DNA from: Squalus acanthias
Lineage: Eukaryota
Direction of reading: 5' to 3'
NCBI GenBank assembly: GCA_030390025.1
Contig: JASTWF010000109.1
Location: 682,001 to 746,000, forward strand
Length of the DNA stretch: 64,000 bases
The notes beneath the pieces are model-generated. The model saw only the letters and a program-made list of their open reading frames with translations, ran no database searches and had not been told where the DNA came from. Below, in pieces: positions 78 through 31,630 of this stretch (positions within the stretch are counted from its first letter, which is position 1; each line of letters opens with the position of its first letter). A program made the position numbers and the translations under genes.

Positions 78-3000
78 TATAGATTCATAGAGTCATAGAG
101 TTATACAGCACAGAAAGAGGCCCTTCGGCACATCGTGTCCGCGCCGGCCATCAAGCACTGTCTATTCTCATCCCATTTTCCAGCACTTGGTCCGTAGCCT
201 TGTATGCTATGGCGTTTCATGTGCTCATCTAAATGCTTCTTGAATGTTGTGAAGGTTCCTGCCTCTACCACCCTTTCAGGCAGAGTTCCAGATTCCACCC
301 AAACTCTGGGTGAAAAAGTTTTTCCTCAAATCCCCTCTTAACCTCCTGCCCCTTACCTTGAAACAGTGCCTCCTGGTTATTGACACCTCTACTAAGGGGA
401 AACGTTTCTTTCCATCTACCATATCTATGCCCCTTATAATTTTGTACACCTCAATCAGGTCCCCCCTCAGCCTTCTCTGCTCTAAGGAAAACAATCCCAG
501 CCTGTCCAGTCTCTCTTCATAGCTGAAGCGCTCCAGCCCAGGTAACATCGCTGAAGATTCTCCTCTGCACACTCTCCAATGCAATCACATCCTTCCTATA
601 GTGTGGCGACCAGAACTGCACACAATATTCCAGCTGTGGCCCAACTAACGTTTTGTACAGCTCTATCTTAATCTCCCTGCTCTTATATTATATGCCTCGG
701 CTAAAGAGTGAAAGTATCCCATAAGACTTTTTAACCACCTTATCTACCTGTCCTGCTGCCTTCGGGGATCTATGTACATGCACAGCAAGGTCCATCTGAT
801 CCTCTGTCCTTCCAAGGATCCTACCATTCATTGTGTATTCCCTTGCCTTGTCTGTCCTCCCAAAATGAATCACCTCAAACTTTTCAGGGTTAAATTCCAT
901 TTGCCAGTGTTCTGCTAATCTAAAACTCTGGTCTATATCGTCCTGTAGCCTGAGGCTACATTCCTCGCTATTTACCACTTCACCAGTTTGCGTGTCATCA
1001 GCGAACTTACTGAAAATACCTTCTACATTCATATCTAAATCATGAATGTCCACTACAAACAGCAAATGACCCAGCACCGATCCCTGCGGTACACCACTGG
1101 ACACACGCTTCCAGTCACAATAACAACCTTCGACCATTACCCTCTGCCACCATCCAATAAGCCAATTTTGGATTCAATGTGCCAAATTGCCCTGGATCCC
1201 ATGGGCTCTTAACTTCTTGACCAGTCTTCCATGTGGGACTTTGTCAAAAGCCTTACTGAAGTCCATGTAGACTACATCAACTGCACTACCCTCATCCACA
1301 CAAATCAACCCCTCGAAAAGTTCAATCAAATTGTTCAAACATGATCTCCCACTGACAAAGCCATGCTGACTAGCCCTGATGAATCCCTGCCTCTCCAAGT
1401 GGAGACTAATTCTGCCCCTCAGAATGTTTTCCAATAATATCCCTAACATTGATGTTCGGCTCACTGGCCTGTAATTCCCTGGTTTATCCCTACTACACTT
1501 CTTGAACAATGGTACTACGTTAGCTTTTCTCCAGTCCTCTGGCACATCCCCTGTGACCAAAGAGGCGCTGAAAAAGTGTGTCAGAGCCCTTGCAATCTCC
1601 TCCCTTGCCTCACACAGCAGCCTGGGCTACATCCCGTCAGGGCCTGGGAATTTATCCACTTTTAAGCCCGCTAAACCGCTAGTAACTTCTTCCTCTCAAT
1701 ACTAATTTGTTCAGGTATATCACAATCCCCCCTGCCTGATTTCGAAGCCTACATCGTCCTTCTCCATAGTGAACACAGATGCAAACTATTCATTTAAAAC
1801 CTCACCTACATCTTCCGGCTCTACACACAGATTGTCACTTTGATCCCTAATGGGAACTACTCTTTCCCTGATTATCCTTTTGACCTTTATGTACTTATAA
1901 AACACCTTGGGATTTTCCTTTATTTTGGCCGCCAGTATTTTTTCATGCCCCCTCTTCGCTCTCGTAATTTCTTTTTTTAAGTACGCCCCTGCACTTTCTA
2001 TACTCCTCTAGGGCTTCCACTGTTTTTAGTCCTCTGTATCTCCCAAAGGCCTCCCTTTTTTTCCTAATTCTTTCTTGTATATCCCTAGACATCCAGGGTT
2101 CCCTGACCTTGTTGTTCCCACCCTTTACCTTTAAGGGAACATGTTGGCGTTGTACTCTCTCTAGTTCCTTTCTGAAAGGCTCCCAAAGCTCCGATGTGCA
2201 TTTCCCTACAAGTAGCTGGTCCCAGTCCACTTTGGCCAGGTCATGCCTTATCATATTAAAATCGGCCTTCCCCCTGTTTAGAAACTTTATTTCCGGTCCA
2301 CCTTTGTCCTTTTCCATGACTACCTTAAATCTCACCGAATTATGGTTACTGTCACCAAAATGCTCTACTAATGACACATCTACCACTTGCTCGGCTACAT
2401 TCCCCAGAATTAGGCCCTGTACCGCCCCCTCACTTGTCGGACTTTCTACATGCTGGCACAAAAAGCTCTCCAGGATCCACTTTAAGAATTCTGCACCCTC
2501 TAAGCCTTTCACACTCTGAATATCTCAGTTAATATTGCGGAAATTGAAATCCCTACTATTATTTTCCTATTATTTCTACACGTCTCTGAAATTTGCCTAT
2601 ATATCTGTTCCTCTATCGCCCTCTGACTGTTTGGGGGCCTATAGTACACTCCCAGCAAAGTGCTTGCCAGCATTTATTTTTTAGGTTCGACGCATATGGC
2701 CTCATTCGAGGAACCTGCTAAGATATCATCCCTCCTCAAAGCAATAATTGACTCCTTGAATAATATTGCGACAACCATCCTCTTTCACAACACACTCTGT
2801 CTCGCCTGAAGATTCTATACCCCGAAATATTGAGCTGCCAGTCCTGCCCCTCTCTCAACCATGTCTCTGTGATAGCAACAATATCAAACTCCCATGTTTT
2901 CATCAACAACTTAAATTCATCTGCATTACTCGCAAGACTCCTTTCATTCAAATAATTGCCACCAGCCTTGCCATACTCCTTTGTGCCGTTATATATTTGC

Positions 3001-3085
3001 TCTGCCTTCCACGCTGACTAGTTTTTTCCTACATATTTGGCTGTCCATCAAACCCTACTTTAGCTCCACTCCGTATCCATTCCAC
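78..3085 (-). mobile_element. Degenerate CR1-clade LINE (APE endonuclease + RT remnants), 5'-truncated
   Basis: Broken ORFs with WEFDIVAITETWL, GNYRPVS, YMDFSKAFDKVPH, SGVPQGSVLG and KFADD; 3' tail of (actctatg)-type repeats at ~78-103. Confidence 0.92.
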
Positions 3086-3640
3086 TACTCTGTATCTGAC
3101 CAGTGCTGTACCTGCCCTGGGAGTGTTTGATGGGACAGTGTAGAATTAGTATTAGTCTGTATCTGACCACAGTTGTTCCTTCCCTGGGAAAGTTTAATGG
3201 GAAAGTACAGGGGCAGCTTTACTCTGTATCAAAACCGTGCTGTACCTGCCCTTGGAGTGTTTGTTGGGAGAGTGTAGAGGGAGCTTTACTCTGTATCTAA
3301 CCCGTGCTGTACCTGTCCTGGGAGTGTTTGATGAGACAGTGTAGAGGGAAGTTTTCTCTGTATCTCACCCATGCTGTACCTGCCCTGGGACTGTTTGATG
3401 GGAGAGTGTAGAGGGAGATTTACTCTGTATCTGACCGGTGCTGTACCTTCCCTGGGACTGTTTGATGGGTAAGTATCGAGGGAGCTTTACGCTGCATGAC
3501 ACTCGTTGTGCATCTGGACTGGGAGTGTTTGATGGGGAGTGAAGAGGGATCTTTACTCTGTATCTACCCAGTGCTGAACCTGCCGTGGCAGTGTTAGATG
3601 GGGATAGCAAAGGGAAATTTACTCTGCCATGTACTGCACT
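3086..3640 (-). repeat. 67-bp satellite array
   Basis: About 8 diverged copies of the reverse complement of cccatcaaacactcccagggcaggtacagcacgggttagatacagagtaaagctccctctacactgt. Confidence 0.9.
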
Positions 3641-4592: not shown

Positions 4593-4601
4593 TCACTTGA
4601 C
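4593..4601 (-). CDS. IGHM: IgM TM2 exon (V-K-stop)
   Basis: Polypyrimidine tract ttctatccctcttttaaag|GTC AAG TGA, giving the canonical KVK cytoplasmic tail. Confidence 0.9.
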   Translation of the reverse strand, partial: VK

Positions 4602-4741
4602 CTTTAAAAGAGGGATAGAAGAATGAAGCAGAGTTTTAGTTGACTGGGACATTTATCTCAGGATTTGTATCAATGAAACTTTCAGAGATTTGTCAAACTG
4701 CTTCAGTCAGGTCGAGATGTGAGTGGATTGAATCTTCTCAC

Positions 4742-4869
4742 CTTCACCAGAGTGACGGCAGCGCTGTAGAAAATGCTCAGGAAGAACAGGATGATGAATG
4801 TGGAAGCGGTTGTCCAGATGTTGCCGCTCTCGTTCTCATAGTCTTCAATCCAGATGTGGTCTGAGGAAT
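4742..4869 (-). CDS. IGHM: IgM TM1 exon
   Basis: ccccgtag| (D)SSDHIWIEDYENESGNIWTTASTFIILFFLSIFYSAAVTLVK |gtgaga; acidic spacer plus conserved antigen-receptor TM motif; phase-1 acceptor. Confidence 0.95.
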
Positions 4870-5559: not shown

Positions 5560-8500
5560 GATTGTGTGATAATGTGTGTTTATCTGTAAGTGTGTATGTG
5601 TTGAAGTGCAAGAGTCTGTGTGCGTTATTTTTGAAAGTGTGTGTGTTTATGTGTAATTCAATGTAAGTGTGTTCATGTGTAATTGTGCGTCTATTTTTGT
5701 AAGTTTGTTTATATTTATGTTAACGTATGGGTGTGCATTTGTGTAAATGTGATCATGTGTAAATGTATCTGTAAGTGAGTGCATGTGTGTCTTTATGTGT
5801 AAGTGTTTGTGAAAAGTTTAGTTTAAACGTGTGTGTGTTTATGTGTAATTATGTGATCTGTTGCATGTGAGTGTGTGTGCTGATGTGAGTGTCAATGCGG
5901 ATGTTTGTATGTGTTTTGTGTAAGGGTGTGTGTGTGGTGTGTGTGTTAATGAGGGTGTCTGTGTGTGTTGGGTGTAAGGGTGTGTGTGTGTTTATGTGTG
6001 TGTTAATGCGGGTGTCTGTGTGTGTGTGTGTAAGAGTGTGTGTGTGGTGTGTGTGTTAATGAGGGTGTCTGTGTGTGTTGGGTGTAAGGGTGTGTGTGTG
6101 TTTATGTGTGTGTTAATGCGGGTGTTCGTGTGTGTTGTGTGTAAGAGTGTGTGTGTGGTGTGTGTGTTAATGAAGGTGTCTGTGTGTTTTGTATGTAAGG
6201 GTGTGTGTGCGTTTATGTGTGTGTTGATGCGGGTGTCGGTGTGCAAGGATGTGTGTGTGTTGATGTGTGTGTTAATGCGGGTGTCTGTGTGTGTTGTGTG
6301 CAAGAGTGTGTGTGTGGTGTGTGTGTTAATGAAGGTGTCTGTGTGTGTTGTGTGTAAGGGTGTGTGTGCGTTTATGTGTGTGTTAATGCGGGTGTCGGTG
6401 TGTAAGTGTGTGTGTGTGTTGATGTGTGTGTTAATGCGGGTGTATGTATGGTTTGTGTGTAAGAGTGTGTGTGTGTTGATGTGTGTGTTAATGCGGGTGT
6501 CTGTGTGTGCTGTGTGTAAGGGTGTGTGTGTGTTGATGTGTGTGTTAATGCGGGTGTCTGTGTGTGTTGTGTGTAAGGGTGTGTGTGTGTTGATGTTTGT
6601 GTTAATGCGGGTGTCTGTGTGTGTTTTGTGTAAGGGTGTGTGTGTGTTGATGTGTGTGTTAATGCGGGTGTCTGTGTGTGTTGTGTGTAAGGGTGAGTGT
6701 GTGTTGATGTGTGTGTTAATACGGGTGGCTGTGTGTGTTGTGTGTAAGGGTGTGTGTGTGTTGATGTGTGTGTTAATGTTGGTGTCTGTGTATATTTTGT
6801 GTAAGGGTGAGTGTCTGTTGATATGTGTGTTAATGCGGGTGTCTGTGTGTGTTGTGTGTAAGGGTGTGTGTGTCTTGATCTGTGTGTTCATGCGGGTGTC
6901 TGTGTGTGTTGTGTGTAAGTGTGTGTTTGTTTTGATGAGTGTGTTGATGCCGGTGTCTGTGTGTGTTGTGTAAGGGTGTGTGTGTGTTGATGTGTGTGTT
7001 AATGCGGGTGTCTGTGTGTGTTTTGTTTAAGGGTGTGTGTGTGTTGATGTGTATGATAATGCGGGTGTCTGTGTGTGTTGTGTGTAAGGGTGTGTGTGTG
7101 TGTTGATGTGTGTGTTAATGTGAGTGTCTGTGTAAATTTTGTGTAAGGGTGTGTGTGTGTGTTGATATTTGTGTTAATGCGGGTGTCTGTGTGTGTGTTG
7201 TGTTTAAGGGTGTGTTTGTGTTGTTGTGTGTGTTAATGCGGGTGTCTGTGTGTGTTTTGTGTAAGGGTGTGTGTGTGTTGATGTGTGTGTTAATGCGGGT
7301 GTCTGTGTGTGTTGTGTGTTAGGATGTGTGTGTGTTGATCTTTCTATTAATGCGGGTGTCTGTGTGTGTTGTGTGTAAGCTTGTGTTTGTGTTGTGTGTG
7401 TTAATGCGGGTGTCTGTGTGTGTTTTGTGTAAGGGTGTGTGTTTGGGTTGATGTGTGTGTTAATGCGGGTGTCTGTGTGTGTTTTGTGTAAGGGTGTCTG
7501 TGTGTTGATGTGTGTGTTAATGCGGGTGTCTGTGTGTGTTTTGTGTAAGGGTGTCTGTGTGTTGATGTGTGTGTTAATGCGGGTGTCTGTGTGTGTTTTG
7601 TGTAAGGGTGTGTGTGTGTTGATGTGTGTATAAATGCGGGTGTCTCTGTGTGTAGTGTGTAAGGGTGCGTGTGTGTTGATGTTTGTGTTAATGCCGGTGT
7701 CTCAGTGTGTTGTGTGTAAGGGTGTGTGTGTGTTATGATGTGTGTGTTAATGCGGGTGTCTGTGTGTGTTGTGTGTAAGAGTGTGTGTGTGGTGTGTGTG
7801 TTAATGAAGGTGTCTGTGTGTGTTGTGTGTAAGGGTGAGTGTGCGTTTATGTGTGTGTTAATGCGGGTGTATGTGTGTAAGGGTGTGTGTGTGTTGATGT
7901 GTGTGTTAATGCGGGTGTCTGTGTGTGTTGTGTGTAAGAGTGTGTGTGTGGTGTGTTTGTTAATGCGGGTGTCTGTGTTTTTTGTGTTTAAGGGTGTGTG
8001 TGCGTTTATGTGTGTGTTAATGCGGGTGTCGGTGTGTAAGGATGTGTGTGTGTGTTGATGTGTGTGTTAATGCGGGGGTCTGTGTGTGTTGTGTGTAAGA
8101 GTGTGTGTGTGGTGTGTGTGTTAATGAAGGTGTCTGTGTGTGTTGTGTGTAAGATTGAGCGTGCGTTTATGTGTGTGTTAATGCGGGTGTCGGTGTGTAA
8201 GGGTGTGTGTGTGTTGATGTGTGTGTTAATGCGCGTGTCTGTGTGTGTTATGTGTAAGACTGTGTTTGTGGTTTGTTTGTTAATGCGGGTGTCTGTGTGT
8301 GTTTTTTCTAAGGGTGTGTGTGTGTTGATGAGTTTGTGTTAATGCTGGTGTCTGTGTGTGTTTTGTTTAAGGGTGTGTGTGTTGTTGTGTGTGTTAATGC
8401 GGGTGACTGTGTGTGCTGTTTGTAAGGGTGTGTGTGTTATGATGTGTTTGTTAATGCGGGTGTTTGTGTGTTGTGTGTAAGGGTGTGTGTGTGTTGATGT

Positions 8501-11500
8501 GTGTGTTAATGCTGGTGTCTGTGTATGTTGTGTGTAAGGGTGAGTGTGTGTTGATGTGTGTGTTAATGCGGGTGTCTGTTTGTGTTGTGTGTAAGGGTGT
8601 GTGTGTGTTGATGTGTGTGTTAATGCGGGTGTCTGTGTCTGTTGTGTAAGTGTGTGTGTTGATGTGTGAGTTAATGCGGGTGTCTGTGTATATTGTGTGT
8701 AAGGGTGTGCGGGTGTTGATATTTGTGTTAATGCGGGTGTCTGTGTATATTTTGTGTAAGGGTGTGCGTGTGTTGATATTTGTGTTAATGCGGGTGTCTG
8801 TGTATATTTTGTGTAAGGGTGTGTGTGTTGATGTGTTTGTTAATGCGGGTGTCTGTATGTGTTTTGTGTGCAAGGGTGTGTTTGTTTTGTTGTGTGTGTC
8901 AATGCGGGTGTCTGTGTGTTGTGTGCAAGGGTGTGTTTGTTTTGTTGTGTGTGTCAATGCGGGTGTCTGTGTGTGTTTTGTGTAAGGGTGTGTGTGTTGA
9001 TGTGTCTGTTAATGCGGGTGTCTGTGTGTGTTGTGTTTAAGGGTGTATGTGTTTCGATGTGTGTGTTAATGCGGGTGTCTTTGTGTGTTTTGTGTAAGGG
9101 TGTGTTTGTGTTGTTGTGTGTGTTAATGCGGGTGTCTGTGTGTGTTGTGTGTAAGGTTGTGTGTGTGTTGATGTGTGTGTTAATGCGGGTGTCTGTGTGT
9201 GTTTTGTTTAAGGTTGTCTTGTTTGTTGTGTGTGTTGATGCGGGTGTCTGTGTGTGTTGTGTGTGTAAGGGTGTGTGTGTTGCTGTGTGTGTTAATGCGG
9301 GTGTCTGTGTGTGTTTTGTGTAAGGGTGTGTGTGTGTTGATGTGTGTGTTAATGCGGGTGTCTGTGTGTATTGTGTGTAAGGGTGTGTGTGTTGATGTGT
9401 GTGTTAATGCGGGTGTCTGTGTGTGTTTTGTGTAAGGGTGTGTGTGTGTTGATGTGTGTGTTAATGCGGGTGTCTGTGTGTGTTGTGTTTAAGGGTGTGT
9501 GTGTGTTGATGTGTGTATAAATGCGGGTATCTGTGTGTGTTGTGTGTAAGGGTGTGTGTGTGTTGATGTGTGTGTTAATGCGGGTGTCTGTGTGTGTTTT
9601 GTGTAAGGGTGTGTGTGTTGATGTGTGTGTTAATGCGGGTGTCTGTGTTTGCTTTGTGTAAGGTGTGTGTGTGTGATGTGTGTGTGTTAATGCGTGTGTC
9701 TGCGTGTGTTTTGTGTAAGGTGTGTGCTGATGTGTGTGTTAATGCGGGTGTCTGGGTGTGTTGTGTTTAAAGGTGTGTGTGTGTTGTTGCGCGTGTTAAT
9801 GCGGGTGTCTGTGTGTTTTGTGTGTAAGGGTGTGTGTGTGTTGATGTGTGTGTTAATGCGGGTGTCTGTGTGTGTTTTGTGTAAGGGTGTGTGTGTGTTG
9901 ATGTGTGTGTTAATGCGGGTGTCTGTGTGTTGTGTGTAGGGGTGTGCATGTTGTGTGTGTTAATGCGGGTGTCTGTGTGTGTTGTGTGTAAGCGCATGTC
10001 TGTGTTGATGTCTTTGTTAATGCGGGTGTCTGTGTGTGTTGTGGGTAAGGGTGTGTCTGTGATGATGTGTTTGTTTATGCGGGTGTCTGTGTGTGTTGTG
10101 TGCAAGGGTGTGTGTGTGTGTTGCTGTGTGTGTTAATGCGTGTTTCTGTGTAGGTTATGTGTATGGGTGTGTCTGTGATGATGTGATTGTTTATGCGGGT
10201 GTCTGTGTGTGTTGTGTGTAAGGGTGTGTGTGTGTTGTATGCGTTAATGCGGGTGTTTGTGTGTGTTTGTTTAAGAATGTGTGTATGTTAATGTCTGTGT
10301 AAATCGAGTGTATTTGTGTGTTTTGTGTAAGGGTGTGTGTGTGTTGATATGTGTGTTAATGCGGGTGTTTGTGTGTGATTTGTTTAAAGGTGTTTGCGTT
10401 GATTTGCGTGTTAATGAGGGTGTCTGTGTGTGTTTTTTGTAAGGGTGTGTGTGTGTTGTGTGTCTTAATGTGGGTGTCTGTGTGTGTTTTGTGTAAGGTT
10501 GTGTGTGTGTCTTGATGTGTGTGTTAATGCGGGTGTCTGTGTGTGTTGTGTGTAAGGGTGTGTGTGTGTTGATGTGTGTGTTAATGCGGGTGTCTGTGTG
10601 CTTTTGTTTAAGAATGTGTGTATGATAAGGTCTGTGTTAATGCGGGTGTCTGTGTATATTTTGTGTAAGTGTGTGAGTGTGTTGATGTGTGTGTTAATGC
10701 GAGTGTCTGTGTGTTCTGTGTAAGTGTGTGTGTGTGTGTTGATGTGTGTGTTAATGCGGGTGTCTGTGTGTGTTGTGTATAAGGGTGTGTGTGTGTTGAT
10801 GTGTGTGTTAATGCGTGTGTCTGTGTGTGTTGTGTGTAAGAGTGTGTGTGTGTTGATGTGTGTGTTAATGCGGTTGTCTGTGTGTGTTTTGTGTAAGGGT
10901 GTGTGTGTGTTGATGTGTGTGTTAATGCGGGTGTCTGTGTGTGTTGTGTGTAAGGGTGTGTGTTTGTTTTGATGTGTGTGTTATTGCGGGTGTCTGTGTG
11001 TGTTTTGTGTGTAAGGATGTGTTTGTGTTGATTTGTGTGTTAATGCGGGTGACTGTGTGTGTTTTGTGTAAGGGTGTGTGTTTGTTGATGTGTGTGTTAA
11101 TGCGGGTGTCTGTGTGTGTTTTGTGTGTAAGGGTGTGTGTGTGTTGATTTGTGTGTTAATGCGGGTGTCTGTGTGTGTTTTGTGTAAGGGTGTGTGTGTG
11201 TTGATGTGTGTGTTAATGCGGGTGTCTGTGTGTGTTGTGTGTAAGGGTGTGTGTGTGTTGATGTGTTTGTTAATGCGAATGTCTGTGTTTGTTTTGTGTG
11301 TAAGGGTGTATGTGTGTTGTGTGTGTTAATGCGGGTGTATGTGTGTGTTGTGTGTAAGGGTGTGTGTGTGTTGATGTGTTTGTTAATGCGAGTGTCTGTG
11401 TGTGTTTTGTGTGTAAGGGTGTGTGTTGATGTGTGTGTTAATGCGGGTGTCTGTGTGTGTTTTGTGTAGGGGTGTGTGTGTGTGTTGATGTGTGTGTTAA

Positions 11501-13240
11501 TGCGGGTGTGTGTGTGTGTTTTGTTAAGGGTGTGTGTGTGTTGATGTGTGTGTTAATGCGGGTGTCTGTGTGTGTTGTGTGTAAGGGTGTGTGTGTGTTG
11601 ATGTGTGTGTTAATGCGGGTGCCTGCTGTTTTTTGTAAGGGTGTGTGTGTGTTGTGTGTCTTAATGAGGGTGTCTGTGTGTGTTTTGTGTAAGGTTGTGT
11701 GTGTGTCTTGATGTGTGTGTTAATGCGGGTGTCTGTGTGTGTTGTGTGTAAGGGTGTGTGTGTTGATGTGTGTGTTAATGCGGGTGTCTGTGTGTGTTGT
11801 GTGTAAGGTTGTGTGTGTGTCTTGATGTGTGTGTTAATGCGGGTGTCTGTGTGTGTTTTGTGTAAGGGTGTGTGTGTGCTGATGTGTGTGTTAATGCGGG
11901 TGTCTGTGTGTGTTGTGTGTAAGGGTGTGTGTGTGTTGATGTGTTTGTTAATGCGAATGTCTGTGTTTGTTTTGTGTGTAAGGGTGTATGTGTGTTGTGT
12001 GTGTTAATGCGGGTGTATGTGTGTGTTGTGTGTAAGGGTGTGTGTGTGTTGATGTGTTTGTTAATGCGAGTGTCTGTGTGTGTTTTGTGTGTAAGGGTGT
12101 GTGTTGATGTGTGTGTTAATGCGGGTGTCTGTGTGTGTTTTGTGTAGGGGTGTGTGTGTGTGTTGATGTGTGTGTTAATGCGGGTGTGTGTGTGTGTTTT
12201 GTTAAGGGTGTGTGTGTGTTGATGTGTGTGTTAATGCGGGTGTCTGTGTGTGTTGTGTGTAAGGGTGTGTGTGTGTGTTGATGTGTGTGTTAATGCGGGT
12301 GCTGCTGTGTTTTGTGTAAGGGTGTGTGTGTGTTGTGTGTCTTAATGAGGGTGTCTGTGTGTGTTTTGTGTAAGGTTGTGTGTGTGTCTGATGTGTGTGT
12401 TAATGCGGGTGTCTGTGTGTGTTGTGTGTAAGGGTGTGTGTGTTGATGTGTGTGTTAATGCGGGTGTCTGTGTGTGTTGTGTGTAAGGTGTGTGTGTGTC
12501 TTGATGTGTGTGTTAATGCGGGTGTCTGTGTGTGTTTTGTGTAAGGGTGTGTGTGTGCTGATGTGTGTGTTAATGCGGGTGTCTGTGTGTGTTTTGTGTA
12601 AGGGTGTGTGTGTGTATGTTAAGGTCTGTGTTAATGCGCGTGTCTTTGTCTATTTTGTGTAAGGGTGTGTGTTTGTTGATGTGTGTGTTAATGCGAGTGT
12701 TTGTGTGTGTTTTGTGTAAGGATGTGTGTGTGTTGATGTGTGTATTAATGCGTGTGTCTGTGTGTGTTGTGTCTAAGGGTGTGTGTGTGTTGATGTGTGT
12801 GTTAATGCGGGTGTCTGTGTGTGTTTTGTGTAAGGGTGTGTGTGTGTTGAAGTGTGTTTTAATTGTGTTTATGTTTGTGTTATATGTATGTTTGTGTGTG
12901 TTGATGTGTGTTTTAATGCGGGTGACTCTGTGAGTTTTGTGTTAGTGAATGTTTGTAAATATATGTGTTATTGCGGGTGTCTTTTCTGTAAGTGTGTGTG
13001 TTTCGATTTTTGTGTTTATGCTGGTGTATTTGTGTGTGTGTTAAAGCAGGTGACTGTGTGTGGTTTATGTAAGCGTGTCTGTGTTGATGTGCGTTTTTGT
13101 GCGGGTTTCTATGTGTGTGTGTTAGGCAGGTGTCTGTGTGTATGTTAATGCGGGTGTCTGTGTGTCTTTTCTGTTAGTGTGTGTTTGTCTCAATTTGTGT
13201 GTTTATGCTGGTGTCTGTGTGTGTTTATGTGTAAGTGTGC
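5560..13240. repeat. ~57-bp TG-rich (sense strand CA-rich) minisatellite, ~7.6 kb
   Basis: Unit taatgcgggtgtctgtgtgtgttgtgtgtaagggtgtgtgtgtgttgatgtgtgtgt repeated over 100 times, degenerate at both ends. Confidence 0.97.
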
Positions 13241-14280: not shown

Positions 14281-14386
14281 AATTTAAATATCCCCAATTC
14301 AGATACACAGCCCGCCCCTTGACAACAATGGGAATCACAATTTACTGAGCGGCTGTGTTTTTAACTCACGATTGGAAGAAAACGCA

Positions 14387-14392
14387 TTTATT
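14387..14392 (-). terminator. PolyA signal of secretory form (copy b)
   Basis: AATAAA ~40 nt after the CH4b tailpiece stop. Confidence 0.85.
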
Positions 14393-14430
14393 GTTATTTA
14401 TTTAAGAACTGAAATTCAATCGAGAGTTTC

Positions 14431-14822
14431 TCATTGACAAGAATTGACGGAGTCCATCAGTACAAGGGAAATGTTCAGAAAACTTGCTTTACCGCTGGAT
14501 TTATTGACCGTTCTGGTGATGATCTTCAAGGGGATTGCTTCATGTCCCACCACACAGGAGTAAGAAGCGCCGCTGGCCCACTCCTCCGCTGCAATGGATA
14601 ACAGGCTGTAGATGAAGAAGGAACTGCTGCCGTTCTCCGCCATCACCTCGGTGTTCCTGTAGTTGCTGGAATTCACCGGCTTGTCATTGACGGTCCACTT
14701 GACGAAGATCTCTCGGGGGGAGAAACCTCTCCCAAAGCAGGTGAGGGTGACGGATCTCTGAGCGGAGATTTCTTCTGCAGAGGGCAGGAGGACAGACACG
14801 AACGGTTGCCGCTGATTTTTAG
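14431..14822 (-). CDS. IGHM: IgM CH4 copy b + canonical secretory tailpiece
   Basis: tcctgcag| (A)[17 protein letters not shown]...[42 protein letters not shown]-stop; internal donor G|GTAAAG at 14493/14492; tail has N-I-S sequon and penultimate Cys. Confidence 0.96.
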
Positions 14823-15302
14823 CTGCAGGACAATTACAAGAAAGGACAATAAACTGGAGAATTCCAGAGACAATTAAAGAGGTTGTTGGATGTGAGAGAA
14901 ATGTGCTTCACGCTGAATTTTGAAGAATGTATTTTTCCCCTCTGGACCCTGTCCGGTTTCCAGCCCGCAGCTGAGGGATATGCAATCCTTCTCTCTGAGA
15001 GCTTGAGGAGTTGAATTTACAACACAGAAACAGGCCATTCGGCCCAACAACTCCACAGGAGACACCTCGCACCTTAATTCATCTAACCCCAATAGCAGAT
15101 CCGTCGATTCCTGTTTCCTTCATGGACTTATCTACTTTCCCCTTAGGTGCATTATCTCGGTCCCAGAATGTTTTGTTAGTGGAATTAACAATCTGAATTA
15201 TCAGACTAATCTATTAAAGCTCTTAATAGAACGAATTGGCCCTTGCACATACACAGGAAATAGCCACAGTGTCTCACCTATTGCTACAATCTCACCGCTC
15301 AC

Positions 15303-15611
15303 CTGTTTCCTTGTGGATGGAAGCTCTTACAGCAGTCGGCATATCCTGATGGCTCACCACGCAGGTGAACTCATCCCCACTCAGCCAGGCTTGTGTCGAA
15401 ATGTCTATGTTGCTGATCACGCTGTTGGGATCCTCTCCGGGTTGAAGGGCAATCTCTGATTTCACAGTCTCCTTTCCTCGGCTCCAGGTCACGGTGACTC
15501 CATAAGGAGCATTAGACAAGACGCAGGTTAAGGTCACCGTTGTCTCCAGTAAGACCTGTTCTAGTGACGGCTGACGAAGAGTAATCACTGGATCGCTGCT
15601 TGTGATAGGAT
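15303..15611 (-). CDS. IGHM: IgM CH3 copy b
   Basis: tttcacag| (D)[30 protein letters not shown]...W...[23 protein letters not shown]|gtgag; 309 nt, phase 1/1, C1-set Cys/Trp/Cys intact. Confidence 0.95.
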
Positions 15612-16299
15612 CTGTGAAATGGAAATTAATGTCAAACAAAGCTTCATCTTCAGAATCAGGACACCAGTATTCAGCCATTACTGTCTCAAGGAGAATAAAT
15701 CACCTTTGTGATATCACCCAATCGCTGTTGCTTAAACACCATCGTTATTGGAAGGACAATGAATTGGCAACGAATCCGGGAGACTCTTTAACATTTCCTG
15801 TGTATTTGCTCCCAGAGCCTCCTGTAATGGGCTGTGAAGCAAATACGCGGCGTACAACAAAAAAATCGGGCGCAATTGTGTTCGGCACTGAAATCTTGCC
15901 GAAATCTCTTGCTCCTTTACGCCCGTCTGTCGATCCTGGTCTTCGAACACATCTCCGCTCCTTATAATGCCTCCGCACCAAGGGGTCAAGAGCGCTCACG
16001 AAAATTATACTGGTTCAAAACGGCTGTCAAATAAAATCCACGATTATAGGTGGAACAGGAAAAAAGTGAATTTCCTGGTTTCTTGTTGCGATTTTTGGGG
16101 CGATGGAAATGTGCAGGAACCTGCTGCAGCCCCCGTCAGAGGAGAGGTGAAAGGTCGGGAGAATGGAGCTCCAAGGCCTCTTTTGTGGTGGGGAATAATT
16201 TGAAATGCCGGGGTGTGGTAGTTTGCTAATTTGTGTCATTATTGAGCTATTCTCATGTCTGGTGTGAGAGCGTCAGAATGAAGTATGACCGCAGGGCAG

Positions 16300-17975: not shown

Positions 17976-18269
17976 GATTAACAGGGAGACCGAGATCTAA
18001 ATGTGCTGCGTTTGTTTGTCGGAAATGGGAATTTTAAGATTCCCCCAGCGGGATGAAAGTTGAAGTTACTTTGAGGAATCGTGTTATGAGAGAGCTTCAC
18101 TCTGTCTCTAACTCGTGGTGAATCTGAGCTGGGAGCGCTGGCTGTACAAACCATGGACCCAAGACCCACAAACACCCAACTTCAGATACACAGCCCGCCC
18201 CTGGGCAACAATGGGACACGAAATTATTTGAGCTGCTGTGTTTTTAACTCCGGATTCGAAGAAAAGCCC

Positions 18270-18275
18270 TTTATT
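18270..18275 (-). terminator. PolyA signal of secretory form (copy a)
   Basis: AATAAA at the position equivalent to 14387-14392. Confidence 0.8.
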
Positions 18276-18357
18276 GATATTTATTTAAGAACTGAAATGC
18301 AATCGATATTTTCTCATTGACAAGAATTGACGGAGTCCATCAGTACAAGGGAAATGT

Positions 18358-18704
18358 TCACAAACATTGTTTACCCATGGATTTATTGACCGTTCTGGTG
18401 ATGATCTTCAAGGGGATCGCTTCATGTCCCACCACACAGGAGTAAGAAGCGCCGCTGGCCCACTCCTCCGCTGCAATGGATAACAGGCTGTAGATGAAGA
18501 AGGAACTGCTGCCGTTCTCCGCCATCACCTCGGTGTTCTTGTAGTTGCTGGAATTCACCGGCTTGTCATTGACGGTCCACTTGACGAAGATCTCTCGGGG
18601 GGAGAATCCTCTCCCTAAGCAGGTGAGGGTGACGGATCTCTGAGCGGAAATTTCTTCTGCCGAGGGCAGGAGGACAGACACGGACGGTGGCCGCGGATGT
18701 TGAG
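18358..18704 (-). CDS. IGHM: IgM CH4 copy a with frameshifted short tail (GKQCL-stop)
   Basis: tcctgcag| (A)[17 protein letters not shown]...TVNKSM; internal donor G|GTAAAC at 18375/18374; tail is 1 nt shorter than copy b, giving TGA at 18358-18360; the remainder of the old tailpiece follows out of frame to 18314. Confidence 0.93.
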
Positions 18705-19182
18705 CTGCAGGACAATTACAAGAAAGGACAATAAACTGGAGAATTCCAGAGACAGTGAAAGCGGTAGTTAGATGTGAGAGAAGTGAGCTTTCCGCTGAAT
18801 TTTAACGGATTTATTTATCCCTCTGGACCCTGTCCGGTTTCCAGCCCGCAGCTGAGGGATATGCACTCCTTCTCTCTGAGAGCTTGATGAGATGAATTTA
18901 CAGCACAGAAACGGTCCATTTGGCCCTTCAGCTCCACAGGAGACACCTCCCACCTTATGTATCTAACCCCAATAGCATATCCTTCTATTCCTTTTTCCCT
19001 CATGAACTTATCTCTCTTCCCCATAAGTGCAAGAGCTCGGGTCCCAAAGTATTTAGTTAGTGAATTACCAACCTGAATTATCAGAGTAGTCCATTACAGC
19101 TCATAATAGAAAGAATTGTTCCTTACACAAACCTAGGAAATAGCCACAGTGTCTCACTTATTGCTACAATCTCACCGCTCAC

Positions 19183-19488
19183 CTGTTTCCTTGTGGATGG
19201 AAGCTCTTTCAGCAGTCGCCATATCCTGATGGCTCACCACGCAGGAGAACTCATCCCCACTCAGCCAGGCTTGTGTCGAGATTTTTAGGTTGCTGATCAC
19301 ACTGTTGGGATCCTCCCCGGGTTGAACAATCTCTGATTTCATAGTCTCCTTTCCTCGGGTCCAGGTCACGGTGACTCCATGAGGAACATTGGAAACGACG
19401 CAGGTTAAGTCTAGAGTCGCCTCCATTAAGACCTGTTCTAGTGACGGTTCGCGAAGAGTAATCATTGATTCGCTGCGTGAGGAACGAT
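19183..19488 (-). CDS. IGHM: IgM CH3 copy a
   Basis: tttcacag| (D)[30 protein letters not shown]...[23 protein letters not shown]|gtgag; 306 nt, open, phase 1/1. Confidence 0.95.
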
Positions 19489-19644
19489 CTGTGAAACAGA
19501 AAGGAAATCAAGCAAAGCTTCATGTTCAGATTCAGGACACCAGTATTCAAACATTATTGTCTCAAGCAGAATAAATCTCACTTGAGATATCACCCTGTCG
19601 TTGTTGCTTGAACACCATCTCCGCTCCTCATAATGCCTCCGTTG

Positions 19645-20985: not shown

Positions 20986-21294
20986 CCTGAGAGCTGGAGA
21001 TGTCTTTGCTTTGGGTAACCCCTTCATGAGTGACCTGGCAAGTGTAGACCGAGCCGGTGAACCATTCGCCGGCGGGGACTTTCAGCAGACTGGTCGCCGA
21101 GAAGGTCCCGTTCACTTCACAGACGGGAGAGGTGACGAAGCCCGAATGCATGAGTTGTCCGTTCTTCAGCCAATTAACAGTCAGTGACTCTGGACGGAAA
21201 TCCATGATTGAACACACGACGGTTGCATATCTGCTGCTGGTGATTTGGTCCCTGGAACTCACCGTGAGGATAACAGTTGGATGGACGGATTCAT
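20986..21294 (-). CDS. IGHM: IgM CH2 exon
   Basis: ccctag| (D)[13 protein letters not shown]...[22 protein letters not shown]...[21 protein letters not shown]|gtaag; 309 nt. Confidence 0.96.
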
Positions 21295-22129: not shown

Positions 22130-22426
22130 CTGGCATTGGGATGCTCCATTCCGAATCACTTCGTCGAACCACGCAGTAGATTGTGCTGCTCCCCACCTCT
22201 GACGCGGTGATGGTTAACTGGCTGCTCAGGGTGTAGGTTCCCATCTTGTTGAGCACTGACGGGTAAGTCATCAATCCAGTGGTGATCGGCACTTTATCTT
22301 TCGTCCAGGAAACGCTGGTGATTTCGGGGTTATAGTCCATCGCCAAACAGCCGAAATTGACGGAGCCGTCGGTGTGGGGTTGTTCACAGGAGAGCAGCGC
22401 GTAGAGGGTGGGAGCAGACGGTGTCG
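22130..22426 (-). CDS. IGHM: IgM CH1 exon
   Basis: ctttctcag| (A)[31 protein letters not shown]...[17 protein letters not shown]|gttag; closely resembles shark Cmu1; N-terminal Cys available for light-chain bond. Confidence 0.96.
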
Positions 22427-23569: not shown

Positions 23570-24370
23570 GATAGAGAATACAGCTCCCTATCCACCGCCC
23601 AGTCAAATATTCACGGCTCACATACAACAGAATATAGATACAGTGTAAACCTCCCTCTACACGGCCCGCACAAAGATTGAGCGGCCTGATGAAACTCGGT
23701 TTTGATACACAGTAAAACTTGATCCATACTGTCCCATCAAACATTCCCAGCTCCAGCAAAGCACTGTTCGGATACAAAAAATTTCCCCATAAAATGCGTT
23801 TAGAAATTGCCCAGGTTAGCGTTTGCATAATTATATACAAATTTAAGCTTCCCATACACTAATCCATTAAAGCTTTCCTGTAGCACTGATTAGATAGAAG
23901 GTGAAACTGCTTTGAAGTTGCCCATCAAACTCCACGTCCTTGTAAATAAGAGGTTAGGTCTCCCTCTGCACTGCCCATCAAACACTCCCAGGGCAGGTAC
24001 AGAGTTACATACAGAGTAAAGCTCCCTCTACACTGTCCCGTCAAACACTCACAGAGCAGGTACAACACGTGTTAGATACAGAGTAAAGCTCCCTCTACAC
24101 TGTCCCAGCAAACTCTCCCAGTTCAGGTACAACTTTGGTTAAATACAGAGTAAAGCTCCCTCTACACTGTCCCATCAAACACTCACAGGGCAGGTACAAC
24201 ACGGGTTAAATACAGAGTAAAGCTCCCTCTACACTGTCCCGTCAAACACTCCCAGGGCAGGTACAACACGGGTTAAATACAGAGTAAATATCCCTCTACA
24301 CTGTCCCATCAAACACTCACAGGGCAGGTACAACACGGGTTACATACATAGTAAAGCATTACACTGTCTA
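23570..24370 (+). repeat. 67-bp satellite array in the J-CH1 intron
   Basis: Well-conserved units at 23960-24365 (period 67), decayed units upstream; a further decayed patch at ~25170-25400. Confidence 0.88.
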
Positions 24371-24990: not shown

Positions 24991-27900
24991 ACACATATAT
25001 CTGGCTCAAGCACACGCGCCTCATTAGTTAGATGCCGAATAAGATTATTTCAATACTGTTGTAAGAAACACTCAGGCCAGATACAGGACAGATACGATCA
25101 GGCACTGCAAAGGCAGATTTACTTTGTCAAACGGCGTAAGGTTAGTTTGAATTCACGTTAAATATTTTCCTACACTGCCCTGTCAGACACTCCGGGTCAA
25201 GGATAGCAAGTTTTGGATTCCGAGTAAAGTTCCCTCTGCACTGCCCTGTCAGAGACTCGGGTCTAGTATCGCAAGGATTAGATTCCGAGTAAAGTTCCCT
25301 CTGCAATGCCCTGTCAGAGACTCGGGTCTAGTATATCAAGGATTAGATTCCGAGTAAAGTTCCCCATACACTGCCCTGTCAAACATCCCCAGAGCAGATA
25401 GTTTCTCTGCAGTGTTTCTGTACTGCTCCATCTGAATGTCACAAATTTGGACACTGATCTCATTTCTGAGGCGTCTCTTCAACCTCACTGTTAATCGTTC
25501 AAGTTTCCCACAGACACAAGTTTCTTAAATCATTGAAACAAATTATACTCCGAGATACAGGTGAACGAACCAGAAGGTTTGCAACCAGTCAGGAGGACTC
25601 CTGATTATCACACTCTGCGCAGGCGCACAGAAACAGAACAGAAACAAATGATGCAACAATGGTGGTCCCAGCAGAGAGATCTGATCAACCTGTCAATTTC
25701 ATTCAAGCTGTTTGATTTCTAATGTATTTTTGTCAATTTCAGACCACCTCAACTCTGCACGTTCTTTTAAATTAAACTTGCATTAATGTGAAAAACGCAA
25801 CATCCAACAATTTTTCCCTATCTTTCGACAATCTTACAAACGGTGTAATATTTAATTTCCCTGAAAACAAGTATCTGGAATTAATTCACATTCCAGGGTA
25901 ACTGTCTGCCCGGAACACGGGACTCAGCGGCAGAATAAGAATTAGCAAACCAGGAGACATTGACATTGAAAACCGATTACCCACAGATTTGATATAAATT
26001 CAGAATTAAATAAAACCTATTAAATCATCGAGGGAAAACATTTCATTAAAATCTGCGGCGACACCTTATCGAGCTGAGCACAGCTGAGAAAGAAATGTCT
26101 TCCTTCCTAAATTAATTTCAGATTTCATTAAAATTTTCTCCAACCCTTGAGATTTTGCAGTGACTGAAATCCTGGCCAGAAAACAACGCAATTGTGAGCG
26201 GTCATTTATGTTGAATTAATTAGCACTGATGTCATATTCTGAGTTAAATTTCATGTTAACTGATGTTTCTCTGCATCATTGAAAATATTCTGAGAGCCTG
26301 TCTGGCCCTTCCTCCTCAGAACCACCCGCACCTGGAACTTGTGTAATTAAATTAATCTGCTTGAATTTCAGTGTGTTATTTTCATCTCGAGCCTTATTAA
26401 TAACTTAATTAATAGTAATTCTAAACCTATTTCTATCTGGTAACTCATGAAATATTAGGGTGTTAATTAAATTGGCACGATCATTCATCCATATTTAAAT
26501 ACTAAACATCATATTAATACTTAACTAAAATCAGACAAAAATACAATTTTAGCGTAAATCCAAAAATATTTCAATAATAAAAAATGATCAGGAACATTTA
26601 ATACTGTCCAGCTCTCTACCTAAACGTTTTTAAACTCTTCATATTTCTGAACTCTCTGATATAACATAAACTCCGTCTATTTAAAGAGTGCAGTTCACAT
26701 TATGAAATTAGGAGTGGACTATTTCAAATAGTTCAATGTCCGGCCGGGATCACATCTCTCTAACTACCGATGGGCTGAAACACCGCCTGCTTACTAAAGC
26801 TGCACTCTCGAGTTGAAATATTGTCCTCAATCTGAACAATAAAAATTGTTTTTATTAATTAAAAAGCACCCGGGCAGTTTATAGTCTGTATCAGAGTATC
26901 CGCTATTTAATAACACAAGCAATATTTTTTATTTTACTCCTGTATTTCACAGAATGCCCTTAAATTAATTATGAAATATAGTCTGCTATTTATTAACACA
27001 ATTTCCATTATGATCAGTGTAAAACTAGGCGAGAACCATTCATTCAGACAATCTGCATCTCTGAAACAGAATGAGCAAATGAAGGAGTGACATTGTTCAT
27101 CAATTTAATATTAATAGCTATCGGATATAATCTGTCCTTTGCCTATCGTTCTATCCCGTATAGAGCTATGGGAGACAGGATTTAAAAAAAAATCAAGATA
27201 ATATGAACCTTTTTTAATTAAATTAATCTGTTTGACTGTCAATGGATTATTTGTCTGTCTCCAGCCTTACGCACTCTGAACCTTCCTTGAATTAAATAGA
27301 ATCACAGGAACAATTCTTTGACTGCCAGCGACATCGGTCTCTCAGCCTATGAACTTGCTCATTACTTTAATGAGTATTGTCTCGCTATCAAAAATCCAAT
27401 AATATTGAAGAAATAAGATGGTTCAAACTGCAACTTACAACACGGATTGAAGTTGTATGTAAATACAACTCGTCATTCATCTGTGTAAAATCGGAGTTAG
27501 CATGTAATTAACACCCCTAATCAAACTGAACACAGCGTTGGAATCAGAATGTTGATATTGAAATAATTGCAGGCATAATTAAAAAACTCTCTCCTGTCTC
27601 TACAATTTTCCACTCAAGTTAATTTTGCCCAGTGTACAGCAGAACTGTGGAAGGCGAATAATGTTTCGTAAATTAATATAAATACTGTAGATTATTTTAT
27701 TAAAATTGGGAGATATTATCGCATTATTATCGTTGATTCATAATAATTTAATTTAACGACAACCTGAACACTATGTCGACAGTAATTAAAGTAACATTTC
27801 ACGCATTAAATATGATCATAAACCATAGATTAAAAGTTGAATGCATAATTATCACTTCAATAAAAAGATGATTTTTGATTTCTAAAACCTTCCTGTTTTC

Positions 27901-28280
27901 TGATAGTTTGAAACACATATAATGTTTGCATTAGATCAGAAACCTGCTGCCGCTCGATGTCACCGAGATTGAACGCTGCACAAACGCCTATCAGTTTAAC
28001 AACCGTTAGGTGTTTAAAGTAACCCAGGCACACAGTCTCCTCAAACGATAAACACCAAATCACATCAATCAGAGGCTCAATCCCTCAACAACATTTTCAG
28101 TGAAGAAACAGTTTAAATCTATAATCCCATTGCAGCAGAATCAAATAAAACATTGCAAACAATCTCAGTACAGAATCCTTCGAACCCAAGTTTCAGTGAA
28201 CGAATTAATTATTAAAATAAACAGAAATATAAAATAAAAACACAAAGACAACAGTTACTGAATGAGTGCATGTTTCTTAC

Positions 28281-28330
28281 CTGCAGTCACCGACACCATG
28301 GTCCCTTGTCCCCAGTCGCTGAGATAGTAT
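28281..28330 (-). CDS. IGHJ: JH segment with D2-like start (apparent germline D2-J join)
   Basis: ATACTATCTCAGCGAC TGG GGA CAA GGG ACC ATG GTG TCG GTG ACT GCA G|gtaag = YYLSDWGQGTMVSVTA; WGxG motif and phase-1 donor. Confidence 0.92.
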
Positions 28331-28358
28331 CACAGTGAGACACGCCGTGCCAAATACT
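28331..28358 (-). promoter_or_regulatory. 12-bp-spacer RSS 5' of (D2)J
   Basis: AGTATTTGG-cacggcgtgtct(12)-CACTGTG abutting the coding end. Confidence 0.9.
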
Positions 28359-28669
28359 CCGGCGGACTGTTAACTATAAAATACTTAGATTAAATTCCAC
28401 AGCGCTCTAAAAACCTGGTTCCAACTCCCCTAACTCTGCACCAGTGAGATATTTCAGCTTGTTCTGGTCAGTATATTTATAAAAGGGATTGGATTACTTC
28501 TGAAGCATCTGTGCAGATTTAGCATGTTAATCAAAATTAATAAAGCAGAATAGTTTATACTTTTAAAACAATAGATATGAATTCTACTCATTATTTTTAT
28601 TTAAGCCACATTTACTTCGACGCTCCTGGCGTTGTCGTGATCTGATGTTTGAGCAAACTCCCAGTCTGG

Positions 28670-28707
28670 GGTTTTTGTATGAGGAGCTCGCTGCGTACAG
28701 CACCGTG
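28670..28707 (-). promoter_or_regulatory. D1 3' RSS, 22-bp spacer
   Basis: CACGGTG-22 nt-ACAAAAACC (perfect nonamer). Confidence 0.93.
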
Positions 28708-28722
28708 ACCCCACTGTAGTAC
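28708..28722 (-). CDS. IGHD: DH1 segment
   Basis: GTACTACAGTGGGGT between two heptamers; typical shark IgM D1. Confidence 0.93.
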
Positions 28723-28750
28723 CACAGTGACTGGAACCCGCACAAATACT
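28723..28750 (-). promoter_or_regulatory. D1 5' RSS, 12-bp spacer
   Basis: AGTATTTGT-gcgggttccagt(12)-CACTGTG. Confidence 0.93.
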
Positions 28751-28781
28751 GCACTCACTCTCTGTGCAATACTGACTCTCA

Positions 28782-28911
28782 ACATTCACTTCAAAGAGAC
28801 ATTCACTTCAAATAGACATTCACTTCAAATAGACATTCACTTCAAATAGACATTCACTTCAAATCGACATTCACTTCAAAGAGACATTCACTTCAAAGAG
28901 ACATTCACTTC
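28782..28911. repeat. 17-bp tandem repeat x7.6 between V and D1
   Basis: acattcacttcaaa(g/t)ag, near-perfect copies. Confidence 0.95.
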
Positions 28912-29242
28912 TGTTCCAGTTTAGAGTTTACCCCGACAGTTTCCAAAACACAATAGAAACTGAACACATTTCCAATCAACTCACTCAAGGTATCACGTAG
29001 ATTGAACCGAGCCTCATATCTAGCTCTACAATTGTTGACACTGTTAAAAGTAAACAGGAGCACAACAGAACCTTTCCTCAGTGCATCGGTTAGTGGGTTA
29101 GACTTTTCCCAGTGAATTTTCAGTGTGTTAGTTTTGTAAGAAGCGTCTTGTGGTCTTGTTCTGAACATTGCCTTTAATATTGCATTTGACACAATTACTG
29201 ACCGTCAGGTTATGATGGAAGTTGCTGAATTTCCCCTCGGTC

Positions 29243-29281
29243 TGTTCTTGTACGGGTCCAGCCCTGGTTCCTCTCGCTGTG
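29243..29281 (-). promoter_or_regulatory. VH 3' RSS, 23-bp spacer
   Basis: CACAGCG-agaggaaccagggctggacccgt(23)-ACAAGAACA. Confidence 0.92.
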
Positions 29282-29589
29282 GTCTGTTGCACAGTAATAG
29301 ATGGCGGTGTCTTCGGGCTTCAGGGTCTTCATGTCCAACGCGAAGATGTTGTTTGAAATGTCTTTGGACGCAGTAAATCGGTCTTCAATCCCGGGGGCGT
29401 AATTGTTGCTGGATGAACTGTAATAGCTAACCAGCCACTCCAGCCCCTGTCCGGGAACCTGTCGGACCCAGCTCATGTAGCTGTATTCAAGATTGAACCC
29501 GCTGGTTTTACAGGTCAGTCTCAGGGAGCCTCCGGGATTCCCGTTCTCTGCCTTGGGCTGAGTCAACACTATGTCATCCGACTGGACAC
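29282..29589 (-). CDS. IGHV: VH exon (shark IgM-type), unrearranged, open
   Basis: ttttacag| (G)[63 protein letters not shown]. Confidence 0.97.
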
Positions 29590-29714
29590 CTGTAAAAAAA
29601 ATCAAAAACCCGAGATTAATCCTGTTGAAAAGATTCCTGACTCTGTAACATTCCAGAGAGAGACTTACACTGAGACAGTAACAGTGAGGGACTTGGACAA
29701 TAAAAACTACTCAC

Positions 29715-29760
29715 CGGATAAGAAAGCCAGCAACAGACTGAGATAAATCGCCGACCTCAT
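29715..29760 (-). CDS. IGHV: Leader (signal peptide) exon
   Basis: ATG..MRSAIYLSLLLAFLS G|gtgag; 46 nt; 125-nt intron to V. Confidence 0.95.
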
Positions 29761-29852
29761 CCTTCTGGCAATGTGTGGGAAGTGGTTCTGGCAAGAACTC
29801 ACTGAGCAAACCCGCTCCCGGACTGTTGTAGTGCGGTCCCAGTGACCGGCAG

Positions 29853-29933
29853 TTAAATACCCGGCAGATGGGGGCGTGGTTACAGGCGCCGCCTATTGGT
29901 TCACTGATAGAGGCGGCTGCTGGAGCCACGTCA
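29853..29933 (-). promoter_or_regulatory. VH promoter
   Basis: Minus strand order: CRE-like TGACGTG (29927-33), CCAAT (29895-99), GC box CCACGCCCC (29871-79), E-box CATCTG (29865-70), TATTTAA (29853-59). Confidence 0.75.
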
Positions 29934-31462: not shown

Positions 31463-31630
31463 NNNNNNNNNNNNNNNNNNNNNNNNNNNNNNNNNNNNNN
31501 NNNNNNNNNNNNNNNNNNNNNNNNNNNNNNNNNNNNNNNNNNNNNNNNNNNNNNNNNNNNNNNNNNNNNNNNNNNNNNNNNNNNNNNNNNNNNNNNNNNN
31601 NNNNNNNNNNNNNNNNNNNNNNNNNNNNNN
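31463..31630. other. Assembly gap (168 N)
   Basis: Run of n. Confidence 1.

Follow-up and report, generated by a model that had tools for sequence, protein, structure and literature searches.

In some elasmobranchs, about half of the germ-line IgH loci are partly or wholly joined (PMC3308330). Partly joined IgM clusters with the arrangements VD-J, VD-DJ and VDJ are described for the horn shark and the little skate (PMC5192425; PMC2193153; PMC3308330), and germ-line joints between D2 and J are on record within the VD-DJ genes (PMC5192425; PMC2193153). Germ-line joining also occurs in IgNAR genes. The type III IgNAR of the nurse shark carries a germ-line D1-D2 fusion, has restricted CDR3s and is expressed in neonates (PMC4622739), and IgNAR2, IgNAR5 and IgNAR6 of the bamboo shark have pre-joined D segments (PMC8692893). 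The germ-line joints of nurse shark light-chain genes were made with little TdT activity (PMC2193156). In the somatic rearrangement of nurse shark heavy-chain genes, each join removes about 380–440 bp (1,644 bp in the germ line versus 1,208–1,268 bp after one join), and the joints are trimmed and carry N/P additions. The V-D-DJ arrangement is among the rarer somatic forms in this species, and red-cell DNA yields only the unjoined bands (PMC2435157).

The window, i.e., the whole stretch of 64,000 nucleotides of Squalus acanthias DNA that was analyzed, carries on its minus strand one complete, intact-looking IgM mini-locus with leader, V, D1, J, Cmu exons, and secretory and membrane tails. The splice ends are AG/GT with matching phases in all exons of the cluster. 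When the last Cmu exon was used as the query, 47 proteins were retrieved among 746 candidates, with cartilaginous-fish chains on top and the named shark IgM chains at 77–83% identity; for Cmu4, identities of 78–86% to named shark IgM chains were also obtained. A search against solved structures returned mammalian antibodies only among the 60 best matches listed. The locus is thus a chondrichthyan IgM heavy-chain cluster with 1 V, D, 1 J, the Cmu exons and both tails; the assignment to a shark IgM cluster in a preliminary description of this DNA is borne out by the V-set match and by the Cmu identity. Its parts are the following.

29715..29760, minus strand: leader exon, ATG at 29760, followed by a GT donor; the 125-nt leader intron is skipped in contigs of the related runs X1 and X7
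29282..29589, minus strand: VH exon, unrearranged, open frame (Pfam V-set, E 2.5e-17)
29243..29281, minus strand: V 3' signal, 23-nt spacer; 1 mismatch in the heptamer, 2 in the nonamer
28782..28911, no strand assigned: 17-bp tandem repeat, 7.6 copies, which stretches the V-D1 spacer to 559 bp
28723..28750, minus strand: D1 5' signal, 12-nt spacer, nonamer at 28742-28750
28708..28722, minus strand: D1 coding segment, 15 nt, unjoined on either side; D1-like pieces occur in rearranged contigs
28670..28707, minus strand: D1 3' signal, 22-nt spacer, consensus nonamer
28359..28669, minus strand: D1-D2 spacer, 311 bp, which occurs in relatives
28331..28358, minus strand: D2 5' signal with a spacer of 12 nt, which today serves the fused D2J
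28327..28330, minus strand: putative D2 remnant, 1–4 nt (up to 3 could equally be J's), as judged from the contigs
28281..28328, minus strand: JH, whole or nearly so, with GT donor; spliced to the Cmu1 start in X1 and X7 contigs
22130..22426, minus strand: Cmu1
20986..21294, minus strand: Cmu2
19183..19488, minus strand: Cmu3, first copy
18313..18704, minus strand: Cmu4, first copy; secretory tail frameshifted, splice donor intact
15303..15611, minus strand: Cmu3, second copy
14431..14822, minus strand: Cmu4, second copy; secretory tail intact
4593..4869, minus strand: membrane exons TM1 (4742-4869) and TM2 (4593-4601)

The unusual part of the cluster is the region in front of J. The signal found there on the minus strand consists of a perfect heptamer (28331-28337), a 12-nt spacer, and a nonamer (28350-28358) that has 3 mismatches to the consensus and shares 8 of its 9 bases with the 5' nonamer of D1. 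The heptamer directly adjoins the bases ATAC (28327-28330), followed by J (YYLSDWGQGTMVSVTA) and, past 28281, by the GT donor. This J is the sole J-like WGxG motif between V and C on the minus strand. From the 3' nonamer of D1 to the nonamer of this signal the distance is 311 bp, close to the 310 bp or so estimated before, and 377 bp lie between D1 and the next coding start. The order of the signals is V-23, 12-D1-22, and then a 12-signal that touches J. A signal scan revealed no 23-spacer nonamer for the heptamer at 28331-28337, and a hidden 23-signal for J was therefore rejected. In the same scan, a second D, a D2 3' signal and a D2-J spacer were all absent. The probability that a perfect heptamer together with such a nonamer lies at most 5 bases from the J start is about 5e-5 at the local base composition, so that a chance match was rejected as well. 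The window's single N gap (31463-31630) is far from the junction. The preliminary description had this layout right: one free D only, a 12-spacer signal with a nonamer like that of the D1 5' signal running straight into ATAC and J, and neither a D2 3' signal nor a 23-spacer signal for J.

The origin of the signal was revealed by contigs from relatives. Matching of 23 related runs, none of them on record as RNA, gave a best share of words of 0.53, and 4 of these runs (X1, X2, X7 and X11) were compared with positions 27700-29900 at 85% likeness. The contig evidence comprises the 32 pieces listed out of 32 + 9,257 and speaks for presence, not for absence; the listed rows cover 24 of 198 loose ends, 15 of 69 joints and 12 of 140 rows of junction letters. 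A single X2 contig, from a run of organism B that is presumed to be DNA, fits the window from 28327 rightwards, i.e., over ATAC and the 12-signal. Beyond ATAC, it continues with 10 further coding bases, a CACAGCA heptamer, a 12-base spacer and an A, and it therefore holds a whole D2 of 14 bases together with the first part of its 3' 12-signal, the nonamer of which lies past the letters seen. Because the same flank is followed by a whole D2 in this contig, the signal in front of J is the 5' signal of D2, and ATAC is the D2 start, as had been proposed from the window alone. Two-D clusters thus exist among close relatives, and therefore the state found in the window is derived.

Further contigs bear on the two sides of the junction. 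In one X11 piece (n=1), J is matched up to 28328 and is then preceded by 28 letters unlike the window, and the piece behaves as an unjoined, divergent J of another subfamily would. The D1-D2 spacer was recovered from X7 (28351-28646, 9 differences from the window) and from X2 (28497-28666, 0 differences). X1 and X7 contain contigs that lack the leader intron, in which V is joined to the J type of the window and J is followed by the start of Cmu1, with 27/27 and 25/26 bases matching the Cmu1 start of the window. The subfamily is thus in use in relatives; the contigs come from some cluster and are not assignable to this locus. None of the pieces listed from the four runs spans position 28331 with 31 letters to its left and right, and the bin depths fit the joined and the unjoined form alike. 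At several places, the window sequence departs from every one of the four runs, and none of them is clearly the source cluster. The contigs also revealed variation elsewhere in the cluster. D1 has 15 nt in the window, and the base at 28709 is missing in contigs of 3 of the 4 runs, so that a 14-nt D1 exists too. The copies of the 17-bp unit in the V-D1 spacer (28782-28911) are 96% identical to one another, and the repeat is a possible marker for this cluster; near it, 138 bases are skipped in one X2 contig.

The X1 rearranged contigs (n=2 among those listed) match the J of the window up to 28329. This fits a native J start either 14 bases ahead of the Trp codon, with a palindromic base added, or 17 bases ahead of it. 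With either start, the joint fits the first 1–4 bases of D2 and a J that is whole or at most 5 bases short, with an overlap of 2–3 bases. At the joint, D2 has lost 10–13 of its 14 bases, which is heavy trimming, and the D2 start and J alone account for the joint; untemplated bases are not needed (the native J start is uncertain by 3 bases). Somatic-like additions are thus not needed, versus 9–35 letters, D bases included, between V and J in the 11 V-J junctions listed from X1 and X7. The breakpoints lie within the D2 coding end and at the J coding start, and neither inner signal is left, which is the shape that a RAG coding joint is predicted to leave. The earlier claim that D2 was joined to J and reduced to a few bases stands with regard to the D2 origin and to the trimming, both backed by the X2 contig; the joining event itself is a matter of probability. 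Taken together, the window contains a fusion of coding ends from which the inner signals and the spacer have gone, an unjoined counterpart exists, and no added bases are needed, as in joined clusters. The free D2 with 12-spacer signals on both sides and the J with a 23-signal, which characterize an unjoined cluster, are absent.

We think that the D2-J fusion is best explained as an inherited RAG coding joint that was made in the germ line, and we would put the probability of this reading at about 0.7. The starting point would have been an ordinary two-D cluster of the form V-23, 12-D1-22, 12-D2-12, 23-J. In a germ-line cell, a single RAG deletion would have paired the 3' 12-signal of D2 with the 23-signal of J. 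D2 would have been stripped of 10–13 of its 14 bases, J would have been kept approximately whole, and the ends would have met at the 2–3 base overlap with no additions. The spacer between D2 and J, which measures about 400 bp in the nurse shark, would have been lost, and the D2 5' signal would have been taken over as the signal of J. Both RAG as the agent and the germ line as the time of the event are what we infer, as are the use of the locus and the effect on CDR3. Apart from the joint, which needs no somatic-like additions, three considerations favor inheritance. Since V-D-DJ is a rare form that is absent from red-cell DNA, it would be unlikely for a single molecule of this kind from a polyclonal tissue to become fixed in an assembly; D2-J joints are known in germ-line VD-DJ genes; and a sawshark gene model has a like contact between signal and J. 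On the other side, the same configuration is documented as a somatic product, and the junction is known from one assembly only. The heavy trimming of D2 also counts against this reading, as does the ambiguity in the native J start, which makes the length of the overlap uncertain.

The sawshark gene was detected when the read-through of the signal was compared with 1.84 billion representative proteins. Of the 3 matches, P0036, a gene model of Pristiophorus japonicus, was the sole homologue; the other two were repetitive, unrelated proteins and were dropped. P0036 reads through a D2-type 12-signal into a different J (residues about 60–101). Over the signal, 11 of 13 read-through residues are identical to the window, corresponding to at least 2 base changes, and 16 bases lie between the heptamer and the Trp codon, as in the window, with no D2 base apparent after the heptamer. 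Close matches to Cmu1 and Cmu3 are missing from the model, and the Cmu3 tree had no row for it; in the trees of V, Cmu2 and Cmu4 (8–17 rows, mostly weak support), it was not the sister of the window cluster. Comparison of the P0036 region with proteins of near length returned only itself (1/1 candidate), and comparison with shorter proteins returned none. P0036 probably represents an independent, parallel D2-J event, perhaps a hybrid joint, although as a protein-level model it may contain an intron at that spot. Together with the window, it hints that D2 loss by this route recurs in sharks. Pattern scans of DNA gave 0 confirmed hits for the signal in metagenome contigs and 0 for J in viral contigs, and a protein scan gave 0 confirmed hits for V in metagenome contigs.

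The configuration found in the window, with V and D1 free and D2 on J, is exactly that of a somatic V-D-DJ intermediate, and such an intermediate from one lymphocyte or clone might have been caught by the assembler, in which case the inherited locus would be a normal V-D1-D2-J cluster. Blood or spleen is a frequent source of DNA for shark assemblies, which counts in favor of this view, as does the whole D2 among the nearest relatives seen (X2). V-D-DJ is an established product of one rearrangement in thymus and spleen of the nurse shark; however, such molecules are rare there and every junction is unique (PMC2435157). The joint of the window needs no untemplated bases, unlike typical somatic joints, which is a weak argument since some somatic joints lack them too, and a like contact between signal and J is present in the assembly of a second species (P0036). 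On balance, we regard somatic capture as unlikely. A still smaller probability is assigned to a germ-line hybrid joint, in which RAG would have connected the signal end of the D2 5' signal to the J coding end, so that J gained a 12-signal by a signal swap. The bases AT would then be one untemplated and one palindromic base. The intact heptamer and the whole or nearly whole J suit this view, and one germ-line hybrid joint has been recorded, in the horn shark (PMC2193153). The heptamer of P0036 is followed by C or T instead of the A of D2, which would suit a hybrid joint for the sawshark gene. In the window, however, the four bases past the heptamer are identical to the start of the whole D2 of X2, and a coding joint explains them without an added base. 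In addition, hybrid joints are a rarer outcome of RAG joining. For the gene, a coding and a hybrid joint would have almost the same consequences.

We also considered a deletion without RAG or a mis-join in the assembly, either between the like-oriented heptamers of D2 and J or between clusters. Both heptamers are the same and each is followed by an A, which results in an 8-base direct repeat, and the region is multi-copy, with the differences from all four runs mentioned above. Yet a repeat-mediated deletion predicts that the heptamer is followed by J's own first bases, and the window instead matches the D2 start, with either of the two J starts. No gap lies near the junction, and assemblers do not merge sequences over an overlap as short as 8–11 bases. 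This explanation is therefore very unlikely. Least probable of all, and by our estimate hardly tenable, is a lineage that natively has one D and a J with a 12-signal, so that nothing was ever joined, a rival view that had been named at the outset. P0036 shares this layout and also the length of 16 bases from the heptamer to the Trp codon. But of the 5 full codons in the 16-base stretches, 4 differ, and the window cluster and P0036 are not sisters. Furthermore, the flank leads into a whole D2 and its 3' signal in X2, and the J of X11 has other sequence upstream. For the lineage as a whole, a single D is contradicted by the X2 contig and was rejected.

If the fusion is an inherited coding joint, the cluster would behave in B cells as a one-D cluster of the form V23-12D22-12J. 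By the 12/23 rule, the 23-signal of V pairs with the 12-signal of D1, and the 22-signal of D1 with the D2J 12-signal; alternatively, V is joined to D2J directly. The preliminary description had deduced the same options, correctly in view of the signals present. V-D1 joining followed by D1-DJ joining would require two cuts, and direct V-DJ joining would require one. Without trimming, the span from the Cys to the Trp codon is 40 bases for the two-step route and 25 bases for the direct route, versus 52–55 bases for an unjoined sister. Since one junction fewer is made and D2 has almost vanished, the locus would be expected to yield CDR3s that are narrower and somewhat shorter than those of sister clusters. 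Among the junctions listed, those with this J type (n=3) had 11, 13 and 14 codons and those with other J types (n=8) had 9–16 codons with a mean of 12.3, so that this J type did not go with shorter CDR3s. Of 12 junction rows listed, 11 entered this comparison (a leader-splice row was dropped), with at most 40 letters between V and J, and none of them is assignable to this locus; the junctions probably come from unjoined sisters. The shorter and narrower CDR3 is thus a prediction for this locus. A fixed YYLSDW-like end, which had also been expected, did not hold up: this end is encoded by J, and its 5' end would be trimmed again in the D1-DJ or the V-DJ step. D2 contributes at most 4 bases to it, and rearranged contigs of relatives contain this J type as well.

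The constant region has a second peculiarity. The unit of Cmu3, Cmu4 and secretory tail is present in tandem (18175-19619 and 14293-15743, minus strand), the two copies being 88.9% identical over 1,453 nt, and the two Cmu3 copies pair as sisters in the tree (98/91). On paper, the in-phase splice sites could allow a mu chain with six domains or the alternative use of the secretory tails. The duplication may possibly also be an assembly join of two clusters. Most of the intron that separates Cmu4 from the membrane exon is occupied by a 7.4-kb GT-rich array (5871-13239) with a strong strand skew, which is built from 131 copies of a 57-bp unit. Elsewhere in the window, a 67-bp satellite forms many arrays (36274-61340, 23960-24357 and 3086-3602; the longest about 10 kb, 66–88% match), and broken frames at 104-3017 on the minus strand resemble a LINE reverse transcriptase and endonuclease, as judged by eye.

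The locus shares the cluster organization, the genomic D2-J joint without inner signals, and the unjoined sisters alongside with the joined clusters described for the horn shark and the little skate. In those forms, V is already joined to D, whereas V and D1 of the window are free, and two diversified junctions are possible. The configuration is exactly that of the somatic V-D-DJ form of the nurse shark (Malecek et al. 2008, PMC2435157), which is described from lymphoid DNA only, is clonally unique and has the usual N/P additions; in contrast, the form in the window is part of an assembly and needs no additions. As in type III IgNAR and the IgNAR genes of the bamboo shark, the partial germ-line join drops one step and leaves V and J usable, and type III IgNAR may serve as the best model for the working of this gene. 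The IgNAR genes have a D-D join with the whole fused D kept, whereas the gene in the window is IgM, has a D-J join and has lost almost all of D2. The NS4 light-chain genes (Lee et al. 2000, PMC2193156) are similar in their trimmed joints, little TdT activity and cleanly removed signals, but they represent several independent events with complete V-J joins that are demonstrated in several animals, whereas the join in the window is partial and seen in one assembly.

As far as the literature was covered, V-D-DJ was found only as a somatic form (PMC2435157); the primary reports on horn shark and skate were outside the search, so that a description in print is possible. The portions of PMC12227049 that were available contain nothing on a germ-line V-D-DJ gene. 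The germ-line V-D-DJ gene, which is most likely inherited, is best seen as a new arrangement within the long-known partial joining of sharks and skates, and a specialist would be only mildly surprised by it. The resulting signal layout resembles that of another receptor. In the T-cell receptor beta locus, the layout is V23-12D23-12J, i.e., the order of the spacer classes is the same, and direct V-J joining is allowed by the 12/23 rule. The likeness is confined to the layout; V and C of the window are IgM.

A wider generalization is conceivable, if rather doubtful. RAG might repeatedly have converted two-D clusters in the germ line of different sharks into working clusters with one D and a 12-signal J, by a trimmed coding joint in the window and perhaps by a hybrid joint in the sawshark gene; these clusters would then form an unrecognized class of semi-joined IgM genes with the T-cell receptor beta layout, direct V-J joining and a short-CDR3 repertoire early in life. 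If this were true, a way in which the number of D segments and the spacing of signals evolve would have been caught in the act, here combined with a duplicated Cmu3-Cmu4 unit and a possible six-domain mu chain. If the joint of the window is inherited, as we favor, the gene stays a diversifying receptor with V and D1 free and with one step fewer. It would then offer a natural side-by-side test, against its unjoined sisters, of whether fewer steps give an advantage in expression early in life. It would also reveal how much D2 adds to the length of CDR3, and it would test whether sharks block direct joining of V to J where the 12/23 rule permits it.
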